DNA of 64,000 nucleotides. Source: an uncultured bacterium. Lineage in GTDB: Bacteria > Patescibacteriota > Minisyncoccia > UBA6257 > 2-01-FULL-56-20. Of this stretch, positions 1-50,123 are shown piece by piece (position 1 is the first letter of the stretch; each line of letters opens with the position of its first letter). The notes below the pieces were generated by a model. The model was given only the letters and a program-made list of their open reading frames with translations, had not been told where the DNA came from and searched no databases. Position numbers and translations under genes: made by a program. The DNA lies in the NCBI GenBank assembly GCA_963844965.1, contig CAWJQC010000008.1, forward strand, positions 92,185 to 156,184, in the 5' to 3' direction.

Positions 1-1488
1 TTTCCTTATGAGCCGCAGTTCCGTTTCGCCGCGGAGCTCGCGCAGGTCAACTTCGCCAATCTCTCCGGCTTTCTTTTTAATGCTCATAAGGCGCGCGTAA
101 GTATATTGGAGATATGGCGCGCTGTCGCCCGTCAAGTCCAGCATTTTTTTCCAGTCAAAAACGATATCCGTCATGCGGTTTTCTTTGAGGTCGTTGTACT
201 TCAGGGCGCCAACGCCGACCACTTCCGCGATCTTCCGTTTTTCCTCATCGGACGGGCCCTCGGCGGCTTTTTCATAACGCTTGAGGGATTTCTCGTCCAC
301 AACGTCGCGCGCAAGCGTAATCGCTTTCTCCAAGACGTCCGCAAGTAAAATCGTTTTGCCCTCGCGCGTCGCCAATTTTTTGCCAGCTTCGCCGAGAACC
401 AAGCCGTATTTAACGTGCATTAACTCGGCCCCGTCCAACCCCACGATCTTCGCTATCGCGAAAAGCTGTTCAAAGTGCAGCGACTGTTCGTTTCCTACGA
501 CATACAAAATCTTGGCCGGCTTGTATTTCGTCAGGCGGTAATTAAGGTTAGCGATGTCGCGCGTGAGATATAGGCTTGCCCCGTCCGACTTCCGCACCAG
601 CGCCGTCGGCAGGTGAAAACTTTCCAGATTGACGATTAAGGCGCCCGCACTTTCCTGCGCGATGCCCCGCTCCTCCAGATTCTCAAGGAGCGGCTTCAAA
701 TCCTTCTCAAAAAAGCTCTCGCCGATCCACTCGTCAAATTCAATTCCAAGGACTTTATACGTCTTCTTGAGCTCCTTTATGGATTCTTCCCGGAACAGTT
801 CCCACAATTTCCTGTTTTCATTGTCGCCCTCCTCAAGTTTCTTGAATTCTTCCTGCCCGCGTTTTTCCAGATCCAAATTATTTCCCAGTTCTTCGTGAAA
901 ACGGACATAAAGTTTTTGCAATTCCTCAATCGGCCTTGTTCCCATCGCTCTCGCATCGCCCCACAATTTATAGGCGGCGATGATCTTGCCGAACTGCGTG
1001 CCCCAATCGCCCAGGTAGTTCCAGCGGACAACTTTGTAGCCCAAAAATTCAAAAATATTAGCGAGAGCGTCGCCGATGATCGTCGTCCTCAAATGCCCCA
1101 CGTGCATTAGCTTCGCGATATTCGGCTGCGAATATTCCGCGATAACCGTTTTCCATCCACCAATGGAACTTCTGCCGAACCTCTCAGCGTTCTCGTGGAT
1201 GCTTCCGAGCTCGTCCTGAAGCGCCTCGTTGCTTATCCAAAAATTCACGAACCCCGGCGGTGCCGTATCTGTTCTCTCAAAAAATCCCCGCGGTGCGCCG
1301 TTCCAAACGTTAATGGCGATTTCCCTAGCCAAATCAATTGCATTCCTGCCGTTTTTTTTCGCGAGCCGCAGAGCCAAATTAGTGGAATAGTGGCCAAATT
1401 CTTCCCTCTCCGGGACAAAAACGTCAATAACCTCGGCGTCGGTGCCGGCAACCGCTCCTTTTATAATTTCCACGATTTTTTCCTTCAT
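1..1488 (-). CDS. argS: arginine--tRNA ligase, 3' end (C-terminus) beyond window start
   Basis: Minus-strand translation from the ATG (plus cat 1486-1488) gives an Arg-tRNA-synthetase N-domain. It is followed by ...IAEYSQPNIAKLMHVGHLRTTIIGDAL, the class-I HIGH motif context typical of ArgRS. The ORF is open to position 1. Confidence 0.85.
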   Translation of the reverse strand, partial: MKEKIVEIIKGAVAGTDAEVIDVFVPEREEFGHYSTNLALRLAKKNGRNAIDLAREIAINVWNGAPRGFFERTDTAPPGFVNFWISNEALQDELGSIHENAERFGRSSIGGWKTVIAEYSQPNIAKLMHVGHLRTTIIGDALANIFEFLGYKVVRWNYLGDWGTQFGKIIAAYKLWGDARAMGTRPIEELQKLYVRFHEELGNNLDLEKRGQEEFKKLEEGDNENRKLWELFREESIKELKKTYKVLGIEFDEWIGESFFEKDLKPLLENLEERGIAQESAGALIVNLESFHLPTALVRKSDGASLYLTRDIANLNYRLTKYKPAKILYVVGNEQSLHFEQLFAIAKIVGLDGAELMHVKYGLVLGEAGKKLATREGKTILLADVLEKAITLARDVVDEKSLKRYEKAAEGPSDEEKRKIAEVVGVGALKYNDLKENRMTDIVFDWKKMLDLTGDSAPYLQYTYARLMSIKKKAGEIGEVDLRELRGETELRLIRK

Positions 1489-1599
1489 TTCCGGTCAATC
1501 CAACTCATTACAATACTTATTCTAACCGACAACCGCCAAAAAAAACACCACCGACAGGACGGCCTAGAACAGCGCCGTCCCTGCCACGGCACGGACAAA

Positions 1600-2397
1600 C
1601 TATATTTTCACGGCGACCAATGCCCTTTCCCTAAAAAATTCGTCGTTATTTTTATTAGCTTTCTGCAGCAGCGTCATAGCGGCATAAATTTTTTTCTTAT
1701 CAAACGAGAAAAGTGCCTTCCGGAATCCGAGGTCGGACAAATACATCTCAAACCCGTCGGTCGCGAGCAGATAGACGGCATTTTTTCTCAAGTTCGCTTT
1801 TCCATAGCGAACGTAAATTTCGGCCGCCCTCTCGCCCGTGACGACGCCATATCCCTTTTTCTCTCCCCGCGCTCCGACCGCGTTTCTGAAAACCGTGCGC
1901 AAAAGGAAGGTTCTATCCATCTCGGAGTAGCGGGACAAGTCAAATCCGTGGTGGTGAGTGTGGTCGCGATTCCAAAATAATAACCTTCCATCGGGGCCGA
2001 TCGCAGCGACGCCGGCATCGCAGATATTTCCATATTCAACCCGACGACTGCAAATCCGAAGGAAAGCCGCCGTCGCGGCGTAGTAGCAACTCGCGTTTTG
2101 GAAAACGGAATATTTATCACGATTTTTATTGAAAATAAACACGCTGCGGTTTGCCTTTCTGAACGCGTTTTTTAACATTCCGCGCCTAGCGTTGCGGACA
2201 AACACGTCACAAAATTTCTGCGCGAGTTTTCCCGCCGGCGACGGACGGGGATATTTCTTCTTGTATTCGATTCCCTTGTATAGGTGAACTCCGTCCGCCA
2301 CAGCAAAAATTTTATTCTTGGCGTCAACTACCCAAGCGTCTTCTTTCGGAAGGCGTGGTCGATGAGTATGCGGAAAATAAAGTTGAATAATTTTCAT
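1600..2397 (-). CDS. PP2C/SpoIIE-like Ser/Thr phosphatase domain protein (putative)
   Basis: 265-aa ORF with FAVADGVH...LLATDGF motifs reminiscent of PPM-family phosphatases. ATGA overlap with the downstream gene. Confidence 0.4.
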   Translation of the reverse strand: MKIIQLYFPHTHRPRLPKEDAWVVDAKNKIFAVADGVHLYKGIEYKKKYPRPSPAGKLAQKFCDVFVRNARRGMLKNAFRKANRSVFIFNKNRDKYSVFQNASCYYAATAAFLRICSRRVEYGNICDAGVAAIGPDGRLLFWNRDHTHHHGFDLSRYSEMDRTFLLRTVFRNAVGARGEKKGYGVVTGERAAEIYVRYGKANLRKNAVYLLATDGFEMYLSDLGFRKALFSFDKKKIYAAMTLLQKANKNNDEFFRERALVAVKI

Positions 2398-4536: not shown

Positions 4537-5776
4537 TCAATGTTTTAATGGGAATTTCCTGCAGAGTTTTTTCACCGCGCCGTTCACATTCCTGTTTTGC
4601 GCCAAAACTTCGTCTATCAGCCGCGCGACCTCCTTCATCTCTTTTTCTTTCATGCCGCGTGTCGTGAGAGACGGCGTGCCGATTCTTATTCCCGACGGGT
4701 CAAAGGGCGGCCTGGTGTCGTAAGGCACCGTATTTCTGTTCACAATAATGCTATTCCGCTCCAGACGATCCTGCGCTTCGCGGCCGGAAATTCCGAAATT
4801 CGTGAGGTCAATAAGCATCAGGTGATTTTCCGTACCGCCAGAGACAAGATTGAAACCACGATGGACGAGTTCACGGGCAAGAGTGCCGGCGTTTTTAACT
4901 ATCTGCCTACCGTACTTTTTGAAGGACGGCTGCATAGCTTCGTAGAGGCACGCAGCGATGGCGGCGGTTTGGTTGTCGTGCGGTCCGCCCTGAAGCGCCG
5001 GGAACACCGCCCTGTCAATTTCCTTGCCGATGTCAATTTTCTTCTTAAGGGCAAGCGGCGATACTCTGATTGGCGAAAATCAGCGCGCCGCGCGGTCCGC
5101 GCAGGGTCTTGTGCGTAGTCGTGGTCACGACATCGGCGTAAGGAAACGGCGAGGGATGCGCACCAGCGGCGACGAGACCGGCAATGTGAGCCACGTCCAC
5201 GAGAAGATAAGCGCCAACCTCGCGGGCTATCTTCCCGAATTTTTTGAAATCAAACTTTCTTGTATAAGCGGTCGCGCCGGCAACGATAATCTGCGGACGC
5301 TCTTTGCGCGCCATTTTTCTCACTACTTCGTAATCAATGAAGCCGTTGCGGTCAACGGAATACTGCGCGGACTTGTAAAATCGCGCGGAAAAATTCACCT
5401 TCCAGCCGTGCGTCAAGTGACCGCCGAAGGGAAGCGACATTCCCATGATTTTTTCTCCCGGCCGGAGCAGGGCGTAATAGACAGCCATATTCGCCGGCGA
5501 ACCGGAATACGGCTGAACGTTCACATGCCAATTTTTACCAAGATGGAAAACTTTCCTTGCCCTCTCCTGCGCCAATAACTCAATCTCATCAATCACCGAA
5601 TTGCCCGCGTAGTATCTCTTACCCGGGTAACCCTCGGAATATTTGTTGGTTAGCGCGGACCCCAGTGCCCCGAGCACTCCGGCCGAAACGATATTCTCCG
5701 AGGGAATCAAGTCCAGAGTGTCGTTCTGACGCCGCGTTTCTTTTTTGATTAAATTTTCCACAATCTTGTCGCGCAT
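4537..5776 (-). CDS. glyA: serine hydroxymethyltransferase, split by a single frameshift near 5045-5075
   Basis: The 5045..5776 ORF matches the SHMT N-terminal two-thirds (…[18 protein letters not shown]). In the adjacent frame the sequence continues …[29 protein letters not shown]… into ORF 4537..5007 (…[16 protein letters not shown]…). Confidence 0.85.
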
Positions 5777-5853
5777 TCGTTAATTTTACACTTTTGCGCG
5801 CAGGAAAACAAAACAGCGCACGCGGTGGCGTGCGCCAATTCTCAAATATCCCC

Positions 5854-6219
5854 CTATTCATCACATGCGACAAGGCCCACGAAGAAAAGAAATGTAATCA
5901 TTATGGAATAAGCGGCTATTCCGATGAGAATGGAATAAAGAAGTGACAGCGGCGGCGCGGCGGAGGATATTTTAGAAAAAGCCATGCCGCTTGCGATCGC
6001 CGGCGCGAGCATCGTCGTGGCCAAGAGTCCAAGAACTGCCGATGTCTCAATGTCTTCCATCAGCAATCCACCAAAGGTGAATGCCCCATGAATCATTTTA
6101 TACATAAATCTGGCTCCACGGATATTTAGCAGGTCCACGGCGAATACCAGGACGAAGGGAGCAATGACGCAAAGAGGAATTACCCACCTTAGCGCAACAA
6201 AAAAATTAAGCCAGAACAT
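5854..6219 (-). CDS. hypothetical membrane protein
   Basis: 121 aa, several hydrophobic helices. Confidence 0.4.
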   Translation of the reverse strand: MFWLNFFVALRWVIPLCVIAPFVLVFAVDLLNIRGARFMYKMIHGAFTFGGLLMEDIETSAVLGLLATTMLAPAIASGMAFSKISSAAPPLSLLYSILIGIAAYSIMITFLFFVGLVACDE

Positions 6220-28444: not shown

Positions 28445-28519
28445 AAATTAAATTGGTGCCCCCGCGAGGAATTGAACCTCGACCACCTCCTTCGGAGGGA
28501 GATATTCTATCCGTTAAAC
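28445..28519 (-). tRNA. tRNA-Arg (anticodon CCG), CCA encoded
   Basis: Minus strand: GCCCCCG acceptor, anticodon stem TCTCC/GGAGG with loop CTCCGAA (anticodon CCG), T-arm CGAGG-TTCAATT-CCTCG, CGGGGGC-A-CCA. Confidence 0.85.
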
Positions 28520-28538
28520 TACGGGGGCTGGCTTTGAG

Positions 28539-32587: not shown

Positions 32588-33898
32588 TTATCGATGCCCG
32601 CTCTTGAGTGTCTCCTCAACGACAAGTCGTTCGTTCCAGGGAATTTTTTCGCCTTTTTCTATATGAATCCAGTCCTCGCTTCCCTTGCCGGTCAGCACAA
32701 CAACGTCGCCGTTTCTGGCCACAGAAACCGCTTTCTTAATCGCCTCGCGCCGGTCGGTAAGTTCCCTTGTCGCATATCGCTTGTCACTTGTCACTCCGGA
32801 TTTTATCTCCGATAAAATCTGGCTAGGATTTTCGTCGTATGGGTCTTCGTTCGTCAGAATAATTTCATTGCAATATTCGGCGGCGATTTTTCCCATTTCC
32901 GGCCGCTTCCACCTGTCTCTGCCGCCACCCGCCGCCCCGAGAACACATATCAACTTGGACCTTGGAACTTTCAAAAAAGAATAAACTTTTTTTAATGAAT
33001 CCGGCGTATGGGCGTAATCTATAACAACCGAGAACGGGGTTCTTTGCACAAATTCCATCCTCCCCGGAACACCGCGGAAGGATCGTATCGCCTCTCTCGT
33101 CGCGTCTTCGCCGACCCCGATATCTCGCGCTACCGCAACGGCGGCGGCAATATTTTCTTTATTGAAATCTTCCAGCGGAAATTCACTGCGTGAATTGTCG
33201 GCGGCAACCCGAAGCGGACCTCGCCGCGGCAATAGCCGAGAAACATTCCCGTCATTCACCGAATACGCGGCTGGTCTGAATTTCTTGAGCGCATCAAAAA
33301 AGAAACCGGCGCTCTTATCCTCCGCATTGATGAAAATCTTTCCGCCCTTCTCGCCCACATAGCGCAAGAAATCAAGCTTGGCCTCACGATATTTTTCAAA
33401 AGAACCGTGCGCTTCAATGTGCTCCGGAGCGAGATTTGTCAAAATCCCCATATTCCAATTCACGAACAGATGGCGCGACAAAATCACGCCCTGCGAAGTG
33501 GCCTCAATCAACGCATACTGGCAATCGGCGCGGACTGCTTTACGCAAGAAGCGTTGAATGTAGGCGCGGCCTGGCATACTGTTTCCCGTTGGGTTCTTCT
33601 CGGAGCGATCGCCGATTTTCACGCGAAGCGACGAAAGCAGGGCAGTTTTTTTGCCCGCCGCCTCTAGAATTGCGTTCAAAAGTTCAAGAGTCGTCGTCTT
33701 GCCCTTCGTGCCCGTTACGCCGACCACAAAAATATTCCTGCTTGGAAAACCGCAAAAAACTGCGCCGAAAAAAGCCCAAAGGAAATGGTAAAGCCAAGCC
33801 GCGCCCGACAAATTATAGAAAAACCCGACCAGGGGAAAATTTTTTATTTTCTCCATCATAAATAATGACCGGCCAATAAGATTGCTAAACTTTACCAC
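32588..33898 (-). CDS. Mur ligase family protein (MurE/MurT-like)
   Basis: VVGVTGTKGKTTT P-loop and IDYAHTPDS motifs of Mur ligases. Confidence 0.65.
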   Translation of the reverse strand: MVKFSNLIGRSLFMMEKIKNFPLVGFFYNLSGAAWLYHFLWAFFGAVFCGFPSRNIFVVGVTGTKGKTTTLELLNAILEAAGKKTALLSSLRVKIGDRSEKNPTGNSMPGRAYIQRFLRKAVRADCQYALIEATSQGVILSRHLFVNWNMGILTNLAPEHIEAHGSFEKYREAKLDFLRYVGEKGGKIFINAEDKSAGFFFDALKKFRPAAYSVNDGNVSRLLPRRGPLRVAADNSRSEFPLEDFNKENIAAAVAVARDIGVGEDATREAIRSFRGVPGRMEFVQRTPFSVVIDYAHTPDSLKKVYSFLKVPRSKLICVLGAAGGGRDRWKRPEMGKIAAEYCNEIILTNEDPYDENPSQILSEIKSGVTSDKRYATRELTDRREAIKKAVSVARNGDVVVLTGKGSEDWIHIEKGEKIPWNERLVVEETLKSGHR

Positions 33899-34466
33899 TC
33901 AGAATCTTAAGCGCAGCCTTCAACCGTTCTTCCAAATTAACAATTTTCTCGTCAACTTTTCCGAGCGCTGCCTTGGCCTGTTCGCGGCGGTAGCCCAAGC
34001 CGACGAGCGTCTCAACGAGGTCAGCGTCAACCTCCATTTTGCCCACGGCAATCTCGGATTTTTCTGATTGTACTTTGCTCTTCAATTCCAGAATAATCCG
34101 CTCGGCCGTTTTCCTGCCGATCCCCGACGCGCGCGTGAGCAAATCCGGTCGCCCCTCTTTGATGGCTGCCGCCAAATTTTTCAGCTCGGCAACTTCCATT
34201 ATAGACAACGCCGACTTCGGCCCCACGCCGGAAACGGAAATCAATAGCTCAAAAAAGTTCAATTCGGCTTCCGTCAGAAATCCGTAGAGTTCCAGTCCGT
34301 CCTCGCGCATATGCAAATGACAGAAAAATTTAACGGCCAAGCCAATGGGTGGTAAAGCACCCAGCGTGCGACCGCTTACAAAAACCTTGAGCCCCAATCC
34401 AGCCGCGTCCACAACCGCGAAGTGTTCGCTCTTTGACATCAGTTTGCCCGAGACGCTGTAGAGCAT
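33885..34466 (-). CDS. ruvA: Holliday junction branch migration protein RuvA
   Basis: …LYGFLTEAELNFFELLISVSGVGPKSALSIM… are RuvA HhH motifs. Confidence 0.85.
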   Translation of the reverse strand: MLYSVSGKLMSKSEHFAVVDAAGLGLKVFVSGRTLGALPPIGLAVKFFCHLHMREDGLELYGFLTEAELNFFELLISVSGVGPKSALSIMEVAELKNLAAAIKEGRPDLLTRASGIGRKTAERIILELKSKVQSEKSEIAVGKMEVDADLVETLVGLGYRREQAKAALGKVDEKIVNLEERLKAALKILSGKV

Positions 34467-39629: not shown

Positions 39630-42151
39630 TCATAATTTTTCCATATTCCCCCAGTCCTTCCCGCAGGAAACGTTCACCACAAGCGGCACTTTCAGGGTGT
39701 ATATTTTTTCCATTGTGCCTCCAATCAGCTCTGCAGTTTCTCTTATCTTATCATCGCGGACCTCGAACAGCAATTCATCGTGAATAGAGAGAATCAATCG
39801 CGCGCCAGCGCCCCAAATCCCGGCCTCTTCCAAAACCTTACGCGATCTAATCATTGACATTTTTATAATATCGGCGCCAAATCCTTGGATTGGAAAATTT
39901 ATCGCCGCCCGCTCCGCTTCGGAGACCAAGCGCGGCGAATCCGTGGCTGCACCGAAGAGATAGCGCCTCCGGCCGGTCGGCGTCCGCGCGAAACCGGAAG
40001 TTCTAACTTCACTTTTTATTTTCTCCTGCCAAACTTTTATCTGCGAAAATGCCTTAAAATACGCAGTGATGAATTCGCGTGCTTTTTCTGTTGTGAGGCC
40101 GCTCGTCCTTGCGAAAGACGGCGCCCCCATGCCATAGATCAGCCCGAAATTAAGTGTCTTCGCGAGACGCCGCTCAGCTGGACCGACCTTTTCAAGCGGA
40201 ATTCCAAAGACGCGCGAAGCGGTGACTTTATGGATATCCAGTCCCCTCTCAAAAGCTTTTATCATCTGCGAATCACCGGTAAGCGAGGCGAGGATGCGAA
40301 GTTCAATTTGGGAATAGTCAAAAGCGAGAAACGAAGAATCCCTTCGGCGCCTCAAAGGCCGCCCGCAGTTCCTTGGTCCAGATCGATTCCTGGGGAATGT
40401 TCTGCAAATTCGGCGTCTGCGAACTCAATCTGCCAGTAGCCGTTCCCGTCTGCACGAATTCCGTGTGAAGCCGTTTACCGGCTGAGAGTTCCAAAAGCGG
40501 GCGCGCGTATGTGGATAAAATCTTGAAATTCTCGCGATAATCCAAGAATCAAACCGACTATCTCGTGCGCCCCGCGCAATTCTTCCAAATTAGCCGCGCG
40601 CGTTGTGCGCATCCCGGTCTTCGTCCTCCGGACGCCATCACCGAGCCCCAGCTTGTCAAAGATAATCTCGCCGACTTTCTTGGGCGAATTGATGTTAAAT
40701 TCTTCTCCGGCAGCCGCGTAAATTTCTTTCGCGAGGCCGTCTAATTTTTTCGTGATTTTTTCTTCAAGCGTCGTGAGTTTCTCCAGCGAAATCAAAATGC
40801 CGTGGCTTTCCATTTCCGCCAAAATTCGCAGAAGCGGCATTTCAATTTCCTCAAAGACTTTAGCAAGGCCATACTCATTGATTTTTCTCGCGGCAAAATC
40901 ATACGCGTACTTCAAGTCGGCAATGTCACCTCTCCACTCTTTGTTAAAAAATTTCTTGAATACCGCCGGCGGCGCGTATTGCTTGAAATCCGGGTCAATC
41001 ATCCAGAAAGCGACGCCTAGGTCAAAGTACGGCGCGCTTAAATCTTTGCCTTGCCTCCATAGATTTTTGAGCGTTTTTTTCAGATCAAAACCGACTTTGG
41101 GTTTTGAAGAAAGATAAGCCGCAGAATATGCCTCGCCGTCTCTTATAAAAATAACTTCTTGTTTTTCGGCATTTTGCGCGACGGCTGAGCCGACTTCCGG
41201 CATGGGAAAAATCCGGCCCTGCTCGCCCCGTTTGCGGCGGACCATTGGGGCTGGCGTTTCCTTTCCCGGCTCGGGGACGTGCACCTCCATTCCACCCTCC
41301 AATCTCTTGAGTAGTGTCTCAAAACCGAGTTTTCGGAAATATGTTTTTATCGGGGAATAATTTTCTTCAATTTTCAGTTCATCAATGTTTTTTACCTCAA
41401 GCGGCACCCCCCGGTTGAGAATCACGAGGCTTCTCGCCAGTTCCGCTTCCTTCCTAAATTGACCCAATTTTTTCTCCAGCTTCGAATCGGCTGCCAAATT
41501 TTTATACGCGTTTTCAAGCGTCCCGAAGCGCTGAAGTAGTTCGGCGGCGGTCTTCGGACCGATCCCAGGAACGCCTTTTATGTTGTCGGATGTGTCGCCA
41601 ACGAGCGCTTTGTAATCAATAAGTTGCGGCGGCCGAAGGCCATAGCGTTCGCGCACGGCCTCTTCATCGTAGAGCATCGTCTCGCTCACGCCTTTTTTGA
41701 AGGTCCTCACCAAAATTTTTCCGTTCTCCACGAGCTGGAGAGTGTCCAGGTCACCGGTAAGTATTATAACTTTAATATCTTTTTCCTTGCTGAATTTCAC
41801 GGCGAGCGTCGCGATCAAATCGTCGGCTTCGTAGCCGGGAATTTCAAAAGTTTTTATGCCGAAGACGGAAAAAGATACGTGAGCATCGGCAAGCTGCGGC
41901 ACGAGATTGTCCGGCGTCGCCGGCCGCTGTGCTTTATACTCGGCATATTCTTTCTCGCGGAATGTCTGCTCCGGCCTGTCAAAAAGCGCCGCGACGTAGT
42001 CCGGTTTATCCTCGCGCCAAAGCTTAAGCAAGATGCTCGCTAAGCCGTAAATCGCATTTATCGGCCTACCGTCCAGGGTCGTGAGCGGCGGCAAAGCATG
42101 AAAGGAACGATGAATTATGGAGTTAGCGTCTATTAAAAGAAGGGTTTCCAC
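39630..42151 (-). CDS. polA: DNA polymerase I, split into three ORFs by two frameshifts (about 40475-40545 and about 40318-40355)
   Basis: 40475..42151 is the 5'-3' exonuclease domain (…GYEADDLIATLA…) plus the N-terminal part of the polymerase. 40318..40545 and 39630..40355 carry motif A (DYSQIELR), motif B (RRLAKTLNFGLIYG) and motif C (ILSIHDELLFEV). Confidence 0.85.
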
Positions 42152-44319: not shown

Positions 44320-45315
44320 TTACAGTAAATCACCTCTCCTAACTATTCCCAAATGGTCGTACGCCGCCGGCAGAGCAATTCTGCCGGCCGACGAGCGCTG
44401 TAAAAAACCCAACGTCATCAAATATGGCTCGTAAATATCCTCAATTACGCCCTTTTCCTCGCTCAAAGCCGCGGAAAGCGTGTTTATTCCGACAGGTCCA
44501 CCGTTAAACTTCTTTATTATTGTCTCTAATAAACGCCTGTCCTGCGGTTCAAGCCCAAGGTCGTCAATTTCCAGCATTTCCAGGGTCTTTTTGGCCACTC
44601 CGGCGTCAACTATTTTCTTACCGTTCACCTCCGCGTAGTCGCGGGCGCGCTTCAAAAGCCGGTTTGCCACGCGCGGCGTGCCTCGCGAGGCCTTTGCCAA
44701 AATTTCCACCGAGGCGGGCTCAATCGAAACACCCAGAAGTTTCGCCGAGCGCGCAAGAATCTTCTTGATATCATCCTGCACATAATAATTCAAACGGAAC
44801 GTGGCGCCGAAACGGGAGCGTAGCGGTTGCGAGAGCAGGTTTTCCCTTGTCGTCGCGGCGATAAGCGTGAACGCCGGCAGGTCCAAACTCAAAGTCCGCG
44901 CTGAAGGACCTTTGCCGACGACAAGATGAAGCTTCCGCGACTCCATCGCCGGGTAAAGCACCTCCTCAATCAATGGATTAACTCTATGTGCCTCGTCTAT
45001 GAAAAGAATCTCGCCCGGTTCAAGATTCGTAAGTATCGCCGCGAGGTCACCAGCTTTCTCGAGCGCGGGCCCCGAGGTCGTCCGCACGCCACAGCCAAGT
45101 TCTTTTCCGACCAAATAGGCGAGCGTGGTCTTCCCGAGTCCCGCGGGACCGGAAAAAAGAAAATGATCCGCAGATTCTTTCCTTTTTTTCGCGGCGTCAA
45201 TGATAACACGAAGGTTGTTTTTTATTTTCTCCTGGCCAACGTACTCGTCCCACTTCGTGGGACGGAGGGCCTGATCAATACTCATATCCTCCTTTGTTTT
45301 GGCGTCAATTTTCAT
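44320..45315 (-). CDS. ruvB: Holliday junction DNA helicase RuvB
   Basis: LFSGPAGLGKTTLA Walker A, …ILFIDEAHRVN…, RuvB C-terminal winged helix. Confidence 0.9.
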   Translation of the reverse strand: MKIDAKTKEDMSIDQALRPTKWDEYVGQEKIKNNLRVIIDAAKKRKESADHFLFSGPAGLGKTTLAYLVGKELGCGVRTTSGPALEKAGDLAAILTNLEPGEILFIDEAHRVNPLIEEVLYPAMESRKLHLVVGKGPSARTLSLDLPAFTLIAATTRENLLSQPLRSRFGATFRLNYYVQDDIKKILARSAKLLGVSIEPASVEILAKASRGTPRVANRLLKRARDYAEVNGKKIVDAGVAKKTLEMLEIDDLGLEPQDRRLLETIIKKFNGGPVGINTLSAALSEEKGVIEDIYEPYLMTLGFLQRSSAGRIALPAAYDHLGIVRRGDLL

Positions 45316-45361
45316 GAAAATCTATAAAATTAGCCGCTTTCTTCTAAGGTATTGACAACAG

Positions 45362-45390
45362 ATAATTTTTATGCTAACATATGGCAGAAT
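45362..45390 (+). promoter_or_regulatory. near-consensus sigma70 promoter (TTGACA-17-TAACAT) with no downstream ORF
   Basis: attgacaacagataatttttatgctaacat. Confidence 0.5.
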
Positions 45391-45396
45391 GCTGGT

Positions 45397-45590
45397 TTTA
45401 CAAGGTTTTTAAGCTCCTTCAAATCTGGGGGCGGGAACGATCCTTAGCTACTCCAGGAAGGCGTGGTTTCGGCGACGCCTCTCCTCGGGATAATTCTAAC
45501 CTCTTTTGATTTTATTAAAAGAGAATCTTGTTCCGACTCCGGTCGGAGCATGCCCCCAGGTTTGAGGGAGTTTTGTTTTCAAAATTAAAT
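45397..45590 (+). ncRNA. candidate structured ncRNA: closing helix CTGGGGGC/GCCCCCAGG around three internal hairpins, then U-rich tail
   Basis: 45435-45442 pairs with 45562-45570. Internal hairpins GGCGTgg…ACGCC, CTCTTTTgattttattAAAAGAG and CCGACtccGGTCGG. Followed by TTTTGTTTTC. No ORF. Confidence 0.4.
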
Positions 45591-45670
45591 ATTAAAAACA
45601 AAAATTAAAGATATTATGATTTTTGATTTAATTCCTCGACCTTTGTATACTTATTTTTAATATTTGATTT

Positions 45671-47363
45671 TTAATCTGTCTGCTGTTTCCACTCTATCCT
45701 GCCGGTAACCGACTCCACTTCGTCAAAACTCGTTAAACCCTGAAGGACCTTCAGAATTCCGTCGGCTTGCATGCTCACCATTTCCTGGGAGTCCGCGAAT
45801 TTTTTCAGGGCCACCTCCGATGCCTCTTTCAGTATCACTTCTTCCAAGGCAATGCCTCCCTCCAAAAATTCGTACACTCCCACGCGGCCGCGGTAGCCGA
45901 GGCCGCTGCATTTCGCGCAACCGACTGGTTCGTAAACATTTATTTTCTCATATGCGGCCTGGTTCACCCGTTTCGGTAAATTATCCAAAAATTTTTGTAT
46001 CTTGGCTCGGAAGCCACCGTCCAACGCTTTCGCCTTCTTGCATTCGGCACAAAGGCGCCGCACGAGACGCTGGGCGATAATCAAATTGAGCGCCGGCCCG
46101 ATACTCACGGCTTTCACGCCCAAATTTATCAGGCGTGGGACGGCACCGACGGCATCATTCGTGTGAAGCGTTGAGAGGACCAGGTGGCCGGTAAGCGAGG
46201 CTTGAAGCGCAATATCCGCAGTATCCAAATCCCTGATCTCACCTACGAGAATTATGTCCGGGTCCTGACGCACGACCGCCCGCAACCCCTTCGCGAACGT
46301 ATAGCCGGCCTCGGAATCAACCTGCGTCTGTTCTATGCCCGGAATCCTGTACTCTATTGGATCTTCAAGGGTTATTATTTTTATTTCGGGGCTGTTAACC
46401 CTCTTCAAAAACGCGTAAAGGGTGGTGGTTTTCCCGGAGCCGGTGGGACCAGTGTTTAAAATAAGGCCGTTGGGCTTTTCTATTTGGCGATTTACAATAA
46501 CGAGGATCGTCTTCCCTTATGCCCAGCCCGCCGAGGTCAATCGCGATAACATCCGGGTCCAGGATCCGCAGGACAATGGTCTCGCCGAATTCCGCCGGTA
46601 TAACCGAGGCGCGAATTTCTATTTCCTTTTGCCCGAAACCTATCGTGAACCGACCGTCCTGTGACTCGCCTTTTATATTTATCTTCATTCCGGAGAGAAG
46701 CTTGAGGCGCGAAACCAAGGACTCGTAATTCTTAAGCGGCAACTCCTCGAAAATATCGTGCAACAAGCCGTCAACTCTGTAGCGCATGCGCGCGTTTTTC
46801 TCCCCGGCCTCAAAATGTATGTCGGACGCCTTAAGACCCATGGCGCCGGCCAGGACAACCTCGATAAGAGTGACCGGGGTCGTCTTTGTAAAATCCAATT
46901 TTCCTATTTCGCTTTTTACCGCGGAGAAATTAACGAGTATCGCGGAGAGTTCTTCAAGCCGCTTTTTTTCGATTTTCACCTTGCCGGTAATCTCTTCCGC
47001 CTCCGGTTTGACAAATTTATAAAAGCGCCAGGCGTCGCCGAGTCCCGAAAGTGACGTGACGAACGTTTTTACCTCGTATTTTTTATTTTCCAGGTCTTTG
47101 ATAATTTTTTGCACCGCGGGCGCGCGGGGATCGGCGGCGGCTAAAGCCACTCTCCTGACCTTGACCTCAATCGTTGCGACCCTCGCGCCGCGCGCCACAT
47201 CTTCCAGAACAAGTTTTAACGCGTCCGTGGAAACGGGGGTCTTGGATAAATCCACATAAGGAAACCCTGCGTCACTAGCCAAACGTTGCGCCGCCCGCTC
47301 CTCGCCTTCGCGGTGGAGAACGGTAAGTTTACTTTGCAGAACGGATGGCTTTTGAGGATCCAT
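45671..47363 (-). CDS. GspE/PilB-family secretion ATPase (type II/IV pilus assembly), split by one frameshift near 46500
   Basis: N-terminal GspII_E_N-like domain (…DAGFPYVDL…). The alternate frame supplies NTGPTGSGKTTTLYAFLKRVNSPE (Walker A). The C-part has the tetracysteine motif CAECKK…CAKC. Start ATG (plus cat 47361-47363) is inside MITE-like copy 2. Confidence 0.8.
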
Positions 47364-47483
47364 CCCGTTAGAAATAGGACGCGGATAAAGCCACCGCGCC
47401 ATTTTTAATTTTTTGTAGTGCTCTGACCATTTACAATGATTCTTCTATTTTGCAACGCATCCGCAATTTCTAACGGGATCCAT
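47359..47483 (-). mobile_element. MITE-like element copy 2 (TIR ATCCCGTTAGAAAT; perfect 5-bp direct repeat TCCAT/ATGGA) at the gspE/pilB start codon
   Basis: On the minus strand: ATGGA-TCCCGTTAGAAAT…ATTTCTAACGGG-ATGGA. Confidence 0.65.
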
Positions 47484-47556: not shown

Positions 47557-47585
47557 TTGACAATACGCTTGTTTGGATATATAAT
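47557..47585 (+). promoter_or_regulatory. sigma70-like promoter (TTGACA-17-TATAAT)
   Basis: Upstream of the 47654 operon. Confidence 0.5.
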
Positions 47586-47653
47586 TAAAGTAGTTTAGTT
47601 GGCAGTAATACCAGCCGAGTTCATTGGCCGGAAATCACAAGGAGGATAGGACC

Positions 47654-48439
47654 ATGAAGAAACGATTGATTCTGTCGCAACTGATTGTATTTCTATTCGT
47701 CGTTTTCGTATCCATCTCAATGGCCACGCAAGGACAGCATTCCACACCCGCGCCACGAAGCAGCCCCCCTGGCGGTGGCCAAAAAGTTGTTGCGCCACCC
47801 ACGCAACGCGGCGGCCCACAACGAACCACTCCGGCACAACTACAACGTCCCACCCAAAATCGAACCTATCGCATTCCCGCGCAGGGACCTTTGCCACAGG
47901 CGCGCGGTGGCCCCGGTGTTTACAACCGATCATATTATCCGCAAATGCCCAGTCCGCGCCAGAACAACCGGCGACGGTTTAGTGGAGAATATCGCGGCGG
48001 TGAAAGCCGCTTCGGCGGCTACGGCGGGCGCTACTTCGGTGGCGGACGCAACCGCGGTTATTACGGCGGTTTGAGGGGCTACGGCGGGAGAAGCCACGGC
48101 TGGGGGTATGGGTACCACAGTTGGAGCTATATCTGGTTTTTACTCTTCGGTTTTGAATATGGACCACCCCCTTGGTATTGGGATCCGTTCTATTGGGATT
48201 CGTCGTACTATGGCGCCTACTGGGGACCGTGGTTCGGAAGGTGGGGGATCACCTATTGCCCGTATCCGTACTATCCATACTATCCATACGATGCGGCCAT
48301 TGGCTACTGCGGTCGCACCGGTGTGAAGTTTGACACCGGCGAGATCACGGACAGCACCGACAAAAAAATCATCCGCGAGAGCGAAGTATACGTGGACGGC
48401 CCTACGCCGGCATTGTTAAGGACTTTGACGGCCGGCTGA
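47654..48439 (+). CDS. secreted Gly/Tyr/Trp/Arg-rich low-complexity protein
   Basis: RBS AAGGAGG; N-terminal MKKRLILSQLIVFLFVVFVSISMA signal-peptide-like segment; GGYGGRYFGGGRNRGYYGGLRGYGG…PWYWDPFYWDSSYYGAYWGPWFGRWG. Confidence 0.55.
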   Translation: MKKRLILSQLIVFLFVVFVSISMATQGQHSTPAPRSSPPGGGQKVVAPPTQRGGPQRTTPAQLQRPTQNRTYRIPAQGPLPQARGGPGVYNRSYYPQMPSPRQNNRRRFSGEYRGGESRFGGYGGRYFGGGRNRGYYGGLRGYGGRSHGWGYGYHSWSYIWFLLFGFEYGPPPWYWDPFYWDSSYYGAYWGPWFGRWGITYCPYPYYPYYPYDAAIGYCGRTGVKFDTGEITDSTDKKIIRESEVYVDGPTPALLRTLTAG

Positions 48440-49056: not shown

Positions 49057-49605
49057 ATGTCAGGCCATAGTCATTGGGCGGGAATAAAACATAAAAAAGG
49101 AGAGACCGACCAGAAGCGCGGAAAGGTTTTTTCCAAACTTCTCGCGGCTATTTCCGCCGCCGCGAAGTCCGAGCCGAACCCGGAATTCAACCCGCGCCTC
49201 CGGACAGCCGTGGAAAAAGCTAAGGAGGCGCACGTACCCGCGGAAAACATAGAACGAGCTATCAAACGCGCCACCGAGACAGGCGCGAATCTTGAGGAAC
49301 TTATTTTTGAGGCCTATGGGCCAGGCGGCACGGCAATCCTTGTTGAGGCGATTAGCGACAACAAAAACCGCACCGTGCAGGAGATCAAAAAAATACTGAA
49401 CGAACTCGATGGCAAGTGGGCAGAATCGGGAAGCGTGCGCTGGGCATTTTCCGCCGAAGGTGGATCCGCCTCAGGCGGAGAACGCGTCTGGCGCGCTAAA
49501 TTTCCTCAGGAACTCAACGAGGAGGACAAGAAAAAACTCCAAGAACTTATCGCCGCGCTTGAAGAACAGGACGACACGCAAAAAGTATACACCAATGCGG
49601 CATAA
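49057..49605 (+). CDS. YebC/PmpR-family probable transcriptional regulator (short form)
   Basis: MSGHSHWAGIKHKKGETDQKRGKVFSKL…NPRLRTAVEKAK…; 182 aa. Confidence 0.75.
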   Translation: MSGHSHWAGIKHKKGETDQKRGKVFSKLLAAISAAAKSEPNPEFNPRLRTAVEKAKEAHVPAENIERAIKRATETGANLEELIFEAYGPGGTAILVEAISDNKNRTVQEIKKILNELDGKWAESGSVRWAFSAEGGSASGGERVWRAKFPQELNEEDKKKLQELIAALEEQDDTQKVYTNAA

Positions 49606-49631: not shown

Positions 49632-50123
49632 ATGACCATTCTCGGCATTGATCCCGGCACGTCACGGATCGGCTATGGAATAATAAAAAAGCTTGCCGCG
49701 AACAAACTTGAACTCTTGGACGCCGGCCTTCTCGCTGTCGCCACAAAAGGTGCTGCCGCTCGCGGAAAGTATGACCACCTCAAAAACGCGAGGGGCGCGC
49801 TTGAGGAACTCATAAGAAAATTCAAGCCCGAAATTCTGGCAATAGAAAAAATCTACTTCATGAAGAACCAAAAAACGGGCATTTCTGTCGCCGAGATGCG
49901 CGGTGTCCTGATCGCGACAGCTACGGAAAACAACTTAGAGATTGACGAATATAGCCCGAACGAGATCAAAACCTGCGTGACCGGCTATGGCTTCGCGGAC
50001 AAAAAGGCGGTCCTAAAAATGGTGAGGTTGATACTCAACAAGCCAGACTTGAGCGTGATAGATGATGCAAGCGACGCAATCGCGGCAGCCATAGCGTCGG
50101 CAGGCGGCATCCACACGCGCTGA
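49632..50123 (+). CDS. ruvC: crossover junction endodeoxyribonuclease RuvC
   Basis: MTILGIDPGTSRIGYGII…; the catalytic Asp context typical of RuvC. Confidence 0.85.
   Translation: MTILGIDPGTSRIGYGIIKKLAANKLELLDAGLLAVATKGAAARGKYDHLKNARGALEELIRKFKPEILAIEKIYFMKNQKTGISVAEMRGVLIATATENNLEIDEYSPNEIKTCVTGYGFADKKAVLKMVRLILNKPDLSVIDDASDAIAAAIASAGGIHTR

Follow-up and report, generated by a model that had tools for sequence, protein, structure and literature searches.

RNAs that are recognised by proteins typically show conservation centred on helices, which is untypical of base-pairing small RNAs (sRNAs), riboswitches and ribozymes, and they tend to be single-copy, to have a very strong promoter and to combine a conserved core with peripheral arms that are gained and lost. 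Among the described RNAs that come closest to the one reported here, the signal recognition particle (SRP) RNA is a single hairpin with a GNRA tetraloop and the symmetric and asymmetric loops of domain IV, 6S RNA conserves its shape over its sequence, and Y RNAs have a sequence-conserved segment in the terminal stem, which is their protein site, and a variable multi-branched other end. RNA I and CopA use accessible kissing loops, and raiA, OLE and ROOL are orphan non-coding RNAs (ncRNAs), restricted to lineages and defined by covariation and conservation. To our knowledge, the ncRNAs of the Candidate Phyla Radiation (CPR), bacteria that form a large share of bacterial diversity and are almost all uncultured, are essentially uncharted past rRNA, tRNA and a diverged RNase P RNA. 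The RNA described here is encoded in 64,000 nucleotides (nt) of contig CAWJQC010000008.1 from an uncultured bacterium, and this whole stretch is called the window below. The element lies in the spacer 45316-45670 between two minus-strand genes, ruvB and a gene for a pilB-type T2SSE ATPase, and the comparative sequence evidence identifies it as a real, conserved and strand-specific gene for a structured sRNA. An earlier model-made note on the letters of this DNA, the sequence-only reading, had proposed a structured and possibly novel non-coding transcript of ~190 nt at this place. This has held, because fold, promoter and strand are conserved in more than 100 relatives and no Rfam family is matched. 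All the features that it listed are present, but every coordinate it gave is 10 nt too high.

The element is found in all six of the relatives that were looked up, whose RuvB proteins are 78-90% identical to that of the window (12 loci, L001-L012), and in all of them it is upstream of ruvB on the opposite strand. The pilB gene is on the other side in five of the six, with a spacer of ~220-350 nt, and L012 is without pilB there. Species genomes of GTDB were scanned with an exact pattern based on P1, the closing helix of the fold, and metagenome contigs were scanned with an independent exact pattern that covered the arm P3 and the junction and left P1 free. The first scan matched 20 species, all CPR and with one copy each, the second matched 119 contigs, and the two together gave 120 distinct sequences in 113 clusters at 96% identity. 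A covariance model was built from the consensus structure and run on 100 representative sources. It found exactly one sense match in each of them, with scores from 185 down to ~38 bits, the lowest being L044, whereas the antisense strands gave ~26-59 bits. The match in the window is at 45401-45581 on the plus strand (147.1 bits, E = 2e-36) and the minus strand scores 42.2 bits.

Covariation, which the sequence-only reading had named as a check on its proposal together with conservation, was measured on the 96 best sense matches as aligned by fitting to the model (alignment A3). Double changes were seen in 42 of the 59 pairs and all five helices, P1 to P5, are supported. In this alignment 94.6% of the cells are paired, against 85.5% in shuffled alignments and 42-54% when the partners were slid by 1-3 columns, and none of 500 shuffles reached any of the observed measures in this test, which is blind to the tree. 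Since A3 had been fitted to the model, the pairing count was repeated on a plain MAFFT alignment of 23 sequences (A1). Here 92.6% of the cells are paired compared to 42-57% with slid partners, and the distal part of P1, P2 and P3 each have 4-5 pairs with double changes.

The strand on which the structure acts was examined from the fold energies and from the wobble pairs. Nucleotides 45385-45600 of the plus strand fold at -91.4 kcal/mol (z = -7.6); none of 200 dinucleotide shuffles, which average -56.4 +/- 4.6 kcal/mol, folds as well. The minus strand folds at -69.9 kcal/mol and also does better than its shuffles (z = -4.9). This, and the position of the element directly upstream of ruvB in the orientation of ruvB, would fit a selected structure on the minus strand or in the DNA, namely a structured ruvB leader, a site of termination or processing in the pilB-ruvB spacer, or an inverted repeat bound by a protein; in some variants an A-run and a U-run flank P1, so that termination is possible in both directions. 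We consider such a structure very improbable. The two strands differ by 21 kcal/mol in fold energy, and eight pairs in the 96 sequences of A3 are predominantly G.U or U.G. These would be A.C mismatches on the minus strand. The fold is specific to the plus strand. A site at the DNA level is also contradicted by the wobbles, which stay wobbles with no drift to a perfect inverted repeat, and the fold is preceded, at a constant distance, by a conserved near-perfect promoter on the plus strand.

The predicted fold, as the covariation shows it, is a four-way junction made of the closing stem P1, a long arm that consists of P2, an internal loop and P3, and the two hairpins P4 and P5. In the consensus, P1 of ~24 bp is followed after 0-1 nt by P2 of 10 bp, then by the asymmetric loop, with YUA and a variable bulge on its 5' side and 1-2 nt on its 3' side, and by P3 with the tip G-GU[UYCG]GC-U. 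After this arm come a two-nucleotide junction (AR), P4, a variable spacer, P5, 2-4 nt and the 3' strand of P1. The coordinates in the window are collected in Table 1. The pairing of the transcript ends that the sequence-only reading had seen is real and the helix is longer than it had stated: P1 has 23 pairs in the window (45411-45433 with 45551-45573), 19 of them Watson-Crick and four G.U, and both CTGGGGGC at 45425-45432 and GCCCCCAGG at 45552-45560 belong to it. Its inner segment CUGGGGGC, with U.G wobbles, is nearly invariant. That reading had also placed three hairpins inside the closing helix, where there are indeed three arms, but the first hairpin of the single-sequence fold turned out to be something else. 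When RNAalifold was applied to 23 sequences, this hairpin was replaced by the long-range helix P2, GGAAUUAUUU with GAGUAAUUCU, which encloses P3. Across the family P2 has double changes in five of its ten pairs and 96.4% of its cells are paired. The R:Y pair that closes the internal loop (A3 columns 53-93) covaries from A-U to G-C with a mutual information of 0.83 and is canonical in 99% of the sequences. In P3, five pairs have double changes while tip and base are invariant in sequence. P4 is variable in sequence yet present in every variant that was examined; RNAalifold on the plain MAFFT alignment missed it because that alignment is out of register there. P5 is missing from the Wolfebacteria-type variants. 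Thus the core of P1, P2 and P3 is retained across lineages, P4 varies, P5 is sometimes lost and extra hairpins are sometimes inserted. Minimum free energy (MFE) folds of seven members, six of them divergent (L055, L045, L044, L035, L096 and L104) and one from the main family (L010), each independently gave P1, P2, the loop, P3 and P4, with P5 variably present. Pseudoknots and tertiary pairs were looked for by a mutual-information scan of all column pairs, and the loop-closing R:Y pair was the one convincing addition; the other high scores follow the two main clades.

Some variants depart from this consensus. L045, L096 and L136 have a near-copy of the P1 3' strand (AUCCACACA) directly upstream of the true one (UUGUUCACAGAG or UUGUCCACAGAG), and as AUCCACACA is a possible second partner of CUGUGGA in the 5' strand of P1, they may adopt an alternative conformation. 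L126 (279-555) has ~100 extra nt in the P5 region, which makes its model match 277 nt long, and in L044, the Azambacteria variant, a further hairpin is inserted between P1 and P2.

Table 1. Features of the predicted sRNA gene and its two neighbours in the window
Feature	Position	Strand	Remarks
ruvB	44320-45315	-	Pfam RuvB_N, AAA_lid_4 and RuvB_C; divergent from the sRNA; start codon 36 nt from the sRNA -35 box
-35 hexamer TTGACA	45352-45357	+	exact TTGACA in 101 of 109 homologous loci with enough upstream sequence
Extended -10 TGcTAACAT	45372-45380	+	TG at 45372-45373, TAACAT at 45375-45380; the 17-nt spacer ends in TG
Predicted transcript	45387-45581	+	start ~7 nt past the -10 box, end at the U-tract after P1; both inferred from promoter geometry and U-tract
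P1, 5' strand AAGCUCCUUCAAAUCUGGGGGCG	45411-45433	+	pairs with 45551-45573; distal part covaries
P2, 5' strand GGAACGAUCC	45434-45443	+	partner 45488-45497; 8 of the 10 pairs form in the window
Asymmetric internal loop, 5' side UUAGCUACUCC	45444-45454	+	G45447 pairs with C45486; YUAR motif conserved
P3 hairpin	45455-45485	+	AGGA/UCCU base, covarying stem of 5 bp, tip G-GU[UUCG]GC-G
P2, 3' strand GGAUAAUUCU	45488-45497	+	followed by junction nucleotides AA(C)
P4 hairpin CUCUUUUGA...UUAAAAGAG	45501-45523	+	double changes in 9 of 9 pairs
P5 hairpin UGUUCCGAC UCCG GUCGGAGCA	45529-45550	+	double changes in 5 of 5 pairs
P1, 3' strand UGCCCCCAGGUUUGAGGGAGUUU	45551-45573	+	covariation and direct pairing check
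U-rich tract UUUUGUUUU	45571-45579	+	at and beyond the P1 end; probable 3' end
pilB / T2SSE ATPase	45671-47402	-	Pfam T2SSE and MshEN; convergent with the sRNA

The promoter TTGACA-17-TAACAT that had been pointed out in the sequence-only reading is at 45352-45380, has an additional TG in front of the -10 box and is conserved in relatives. It was found in 102 of the 109 representative loci that have enough upstream sequence, and among these 102 loci the -35 box is TTGACA in 101, the spacer is 17 nt in 96, the TG is there in 99 and TAnnnT in all. The distance from the end of the -10 box to the P3 block has a median of 70 nt, which places the promoter ~15 nt ahead of P1. Both strands of the window together have 22 promoter-like sites with at least 10 of 12 matches, and only the sRNA promoter among them has the extended -10 TG. 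Because such hexamers are not rare in the window, the sRNA promoter is convincing only through its conservation in relatives, which shows a predicted near-consensus promoter of the sigma-70 type, conserved on the plus strand. Transcription would start near 45387 and end at the U-tract; the U-rich end that had been noted earlier does follow the closing helix. The divergent variants L035, L044, L045 and L136 have U-runs immediately 3' of P1 and L055 has a canonical hairpin-plus-U terminator ~40 nt beyond P1. Most main-family genomes are without a terminator, and their P1 extends with its distal end up to or into the stop codon of pilB. For relatives that lack the U-tract, trimming back to P1 is the presumed origin of the 3' end. 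The RNA is predicted to be ~170-190 nt long.

No plus-strand open reading frame (ORF) follows the promoter, as the sequence-only reading had also observed, apart from short ones of 31-42 amino acids (aa) across the spacer. When the three sense frames were anchored on the conserved block, every one of them was interrupted by a stop in 92-96 of the 96 homologues, so that no reading frame is conserved, and the longest ORF per homologue has a median of 27 aa. A hidden small protein is thereby ruled out, as no frame is conserved across the 96 homologues.

The comparison with Rfam (SRP_bact, 6S and others) that had been proposed with the sequence-only reading was carried out with the 4227 families of Rfam 15, and no known family was matched. 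The whole window was searched at gathering thresholds, the locus 45280-45720, the main-family relative L010 and the Wolfebacteria variant L055 at E<=10, and eight divergent loci at E<=1. At gathering thresholds the whole window gave a tRNA-Arg alone, which is elsewhere. At E<=10 the locus gave only noise from snoRNA, leader and sRNA models, far under threshold, and L010 and the eight divergent loci likewise gave only noise. The matches of L055 were on its terminator or were noise far under threshold, such as plant and animal miRNA models. In these searches no model of SRP, 6S, Ms1, Y/YrlA, RNase P or transfer-messenger RNA (tmRNA) was matched and there was no credible match to a riboswitch or ribozyme. 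By this comparison the RNA family is new, with no detectable relation to any family of Rfam 15, but as a type of object it is a familiar one, a stable structured bacterial sRNA gene. Thus the newness concerns the RNA family alone and no new mechanism is claimed. With raiA, OLE and ROOL it has in common that it is an orphan defined by covariation and conservation in a restricted lineage, but it matches none of them in sequence or structure in Rfam 15 and is smaller than OLE, ROOL and GOLLD. We found no description of such an RNA in the papers that were searched for ncRNAs of CPR/Patescibacteria. The sole relevant one reports that the RNase P RNA of CPR is diverged and yet detectable with RF00010 at lowered thresholds (PMC8172020).

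Several known RNAs were considered as candidates and rejected. RNase P RNA (RF00010/RF00011) is not matched by the locus at E<=10, and at ~165-190 nt the present RNA is too short for one, which would exceed ~270 nt. For tRNA and tmRNA, ARAGORN finds none at the locus and only the tRNA-Arg at 28454-28528. A riboswitch or ribozyme is rejected for the lack of Rfam matches, because the conserved positions are nearly all base-paired and because no gene follows the RNA on the same strand in the window. The sequence-only reading had compared the closing helix to the ends of 4.5S/SRP RNA, and the likeness is confined to a terminal helix of the GGGGGC/GCCCCC type and a housekeeping-style gene. SRP RNA (RF00169, RF01854) is rejected since there is no match even at E<=10, the fold is branched in a four-way junction rather than a single hairpin, and the tip is UNCG, not GNRA; the consensus is without the GGAA tetraloop, the AGCA motif and the internal loops of domain IV. 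Y RNA and YrlA resemble the present RNA in the sequence-conserved segment of the terminal stem, in the variable multi-branched other end and in size. They differ in that no model is matched and that there is no tRNA-like T-loop or D-loop module, the consensus having no UUCRANY T-loop, and no TROVE/Rsr gene was seen among the neighbouring genes checked (ruvB, pilB, an LTD protein gene and tsaE), a check which covers nearby genes only. It could still be argued that this is a universal RNA such as SRP/4.5S or Y RNA that has diverged very far, or an unrecognised riboswitch or ribozyme, given that the G-rich/C-rich terminal helix is as in E. coli 4.5S RNA and that size and promoter strength are housekeeping-like. 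We give this hardly any credence. Besides the absence of Rfam matches at the permissive thresholds given above, the four-way junction and the UNCG apical loop, no T-loop-like module is present and ARAGORN is silent at the locus, and there are very few conserved unpaired nucleotides for a ligand pocket or a catalytic core.

The general shape recalls 6S RNA, which binds the sigma-70 holoenzyme and serves as the template of product RNAs (pRNAs). Like 6S (SsrS, RF00013) and Ms1, the RNA is ~150-190 nt long, has a strong promoter of the housekeeping type and a single copy, and is mostly double-stranded, with a long closing stem formed by its 5' and 3' ends, a long arm, and peripheral parts that differ among lineages. 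The suggestion of a 6S-like RNA in the sequence-only reading is weak, as it holds for closing stem, long arm, size (~180 nt) and promoter strength but not for the defining single-stranded central bubble, which the main family lacks. In its place there is a tightly stacked four-way junction, and with a gap of 0-1 nt between P1 and P2 on the 5' strand no single strand is left to serve as a template. The junction of P1 and P2 in the Wolfebacteria type is more bubble-like: 6 nt are unpaired on its 5' side, and its 3' side has a hairpin and ~12 unpaired nt. That the RNA is a functional analogue of 6S or of another RNA that binds RNA polymerase (Ms1) and would sequester the polymerase is nevertheless improbable in our judgement, because no 6S or Ms1 model is matched even at E<=10 (locus, L010 and L055), P2 is backed by covariation, and the side arms P4 and P5 protrude whereas 6S is a smooth rod. 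In addition, the helices of this RNA are conserved in sequence, unlike those of 6S.

The pattern of conservation within the RNA points to a protein partner. Conservation is concentrated in the columns CUGgGGGc/gcCCcCAG, GGAAU/AUUCU and AGGA/UCCU and in the P3 tip, and few conserved positions are unpaired. Inner P1 is conserved as CUG-N-GG/CC-N-CAG and reads UUCAAAUCUGGGGGC/GCCCCCAGGUUUGA in the main family, where two U.G wobbles are fixed. P2 has a fixed G.U in the part next to the junction, GGAAU/AUUCU, and the loops are stable UNCG tetraloops or are variable. Since the conserved nucleotides are in helices, often as fixed G.U pairs, and the loops are UNCG or variable, a protein scaffold is favoured. 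We therefore propose, with moderate confidence, that this is a stand-alone sRNA gene whose product acts in trans as a ribonucleoprotein (RNP) scaffold. From its own promoter the gene would produce a stable four-armed RNA, antisense to the pilB-ruvB spacer and probably abundant, which would bind a protein in trans as 6S, Y and SRP RNAs do; target pairing, ligand binding and self-cleavage by the RNA would be unlikely. Action in trans is supported by the Wolfebacteria L050/L055 type, in which the RNA is away from ruvB between same-strand ORFs, has its own terminator and keeps the core fold.

The location of the gene suggests another role. As a cis-antisense regulator or insulator, the sRNA would uncouple or tune ruvB expression, either by collision, from its strong opposing promoter, or by duplex formation and RNase III cleavage. 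The sRNA gene is within the pilB-ruvB spacer on the opposite strand, so a read-through mRNA would carry its full complement, and pilB and ruvB are on the same strand with no terminator between them in the main family. The -35 box of the sRNA is a median of ~48 nt from the ruvB start, a distance in which a ruvB promoter of its own would hardly fit, and a conserved sigma-70-like promoter on the ruvB strand was looked for and not found. The resemblance to RNA I and CopA is likewise in being encoded opposite a potential mRNA, here the pilB-ruvB read-through, in being highly structured and in having a strong promoter of its own. Unlike the kissing loops of these RNAs, the loops here are UNCG or variable, and the fold persists in L055, where it is antisense to nothing. 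Moreover, antisense action or collision needs no four-way junction, invariant helices or fixed G.U wobbles, and the Wolfebacteria L050/L055 type retains the core fold although it lies apart from ruvB and opposite no gene. The RNA is still next to ruvB where RuvB identity is down to 60%, but pilB and ruvB, a functionally unrelated pair, are kept adjacent about equally well, and therefore the synteny may reflect a general conservation of gene order in small genomes and is weak evidence. On balance we regard the cis-antisense role, which the geometry allows, as unlikely, though it is the main alternative to the protein scaffold. Pairing in trans with the ruvB translation start was rejected as a candidate, because in RNAduplex, a crude test in which one start codon was mis-assigned, matched pairs (-26.3) did no better than mismatched (-25.4) or shuffled ones (-24.1 +/- 5.1).

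Some of our observations weigh against the protein scaffold acting in trans. The RNA stays beside ruvB even where RuvB is 60-66% identical, and this together with the ~48 nt spacing makes a cis role possible. No RNA-binding gene recurs beside the RNA among the neighbouring genes checked. Both scans used exact patterns derived from the RNA, so that the apparent invariance of the patterned segments is inflated; each pattern, however, leaves the segment of the other free and the free segment is still conserved. Finally, P2 has two mismatches in the window, where the MFE favours a local hairpin and an extended P3 (-87.7 against -70.3 kcal/mol), an ambiguity which is specific to this lineage.

If the RNA is a protein scaffold in trans, it is possible, though we put this forward only tentatively, that it is the RNA subunit of a housekeeping RNP specific to Parcubacteria (class Paceibacteria) and thus a new class of abundant stable RNA beside 6S, SRP, RNase P, tmRNA and Y. 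Such an RNP may carry out a regulatory task for which the usual machinery is missing from these reduced episymbionts. A strongly promoted, single-copy and heavily covarying RNA is in any case a testable candidate for a lineage-specific core component of the cell. The alignment and the covariance model can be used for the annotation of Parcubacteria genomes, and the RNA lends itself to pull-downs, structural studies and metatranscriptomics. A four-way junction encoded beside ruvB also brings to mind a mimic of the Holliday junction that titrates RuvA, RuvB or RuvC. This is speculative and at the very most a slim chance; we rate it so low because some lineages have a three-way version of the RNA away from ruvB.

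As to the distribution of the family, the RuvB proteins encoded next to divergent variants are labelled at source Candidatus Azambacteria (L044) and Candidatus Wolfebacteria (L050, L096), and those nearest to the RuvB of the window belong to metagenome-assembled genomes that bear the labels Candidatus Liptonbacteria, Paceibacteria, Minisyncoccia or Patescibacteria. From the latter labels the host is a Parcubacteria-type CPR bacterium. The matches thus show a predicted family that is common to Lipton-, Wolfe- and Azambacteria and confined to Parcubacteria/Paceibacteria as far as sampled. RuvB identity to the window protein is 60-90% over the loci, and in 130 of 151 loci no more than 400 nt separate ruvB from the RNA. 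Mobile copies were looked for and no match was found in IMG/VR viral contigs, PLSDB plasmids or GenBank phages; an origin from a mobile element is ruled out by the lack of viral and plasmid matches and by the single sense match per locus. The Wolfebacteria contig L096 has a partial 23S rRNA gene (1-1822, minus strand; LSU_rRNA_bacteria, 1191 bits) ~5.6 kb from the RNA.

In loci where pilB and ruvB do not flank the RNA, the neighbours differ. L055 has a gene for a beta-CASP/RMMBL RNase (RNase J-like) near the RNA (4587-6140, minus strand). L045 (1610-1996, plus strand) and L136 (3955-4389, plus strand) have a gene for a small protein with a C-terminal winged-helix helix-turn-helix domain downstream on the same strand. 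These cases are too few for an association.

In the 64 kb of the window itself, Rfam and ARAGORN detect no RNA gene of a known family other than the tRNA-Arg (CCG) at 28454-28528 on the minus strand. A ruvA homologue is at 33885-34466 on the minus strand, ~10 kb from ruvB, with 32% identity to E. coli RuvA (tblastn), and relatives have ruvC-yebC on the far side of pilB; thus the ruv genes are dispersed and there is no ruvAB operon. The pilB gene of the window consists of two overlapping ORFs, 45671-46408 and 46395-47402 (335 + 245 aa), where relatives have a single ORF of 557-572 aa. YebC/TACO1 is split too, into 49057-49605 and 49632-50123 on the plus strand, and PolA (40475-42151, minus strand) has only 558 aa, which comprise the 5'-3' exonuclease and a stub of the polymerase domain. 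The split pilB, the split YebC/TACO1 and the short PolA are frameshifts or truncations that could be assembly indels or true gene decay. At 47557-47585 on the plus strand, TTGACA-17-TATAAT, a promoter that fits the consensus perfectly (12 of 12 matches), precedes an ORF at 47624-48439 on the plus strand, which has no Pfam match; at the same position relatives have a protein of 396 aa without a Pfam domain.

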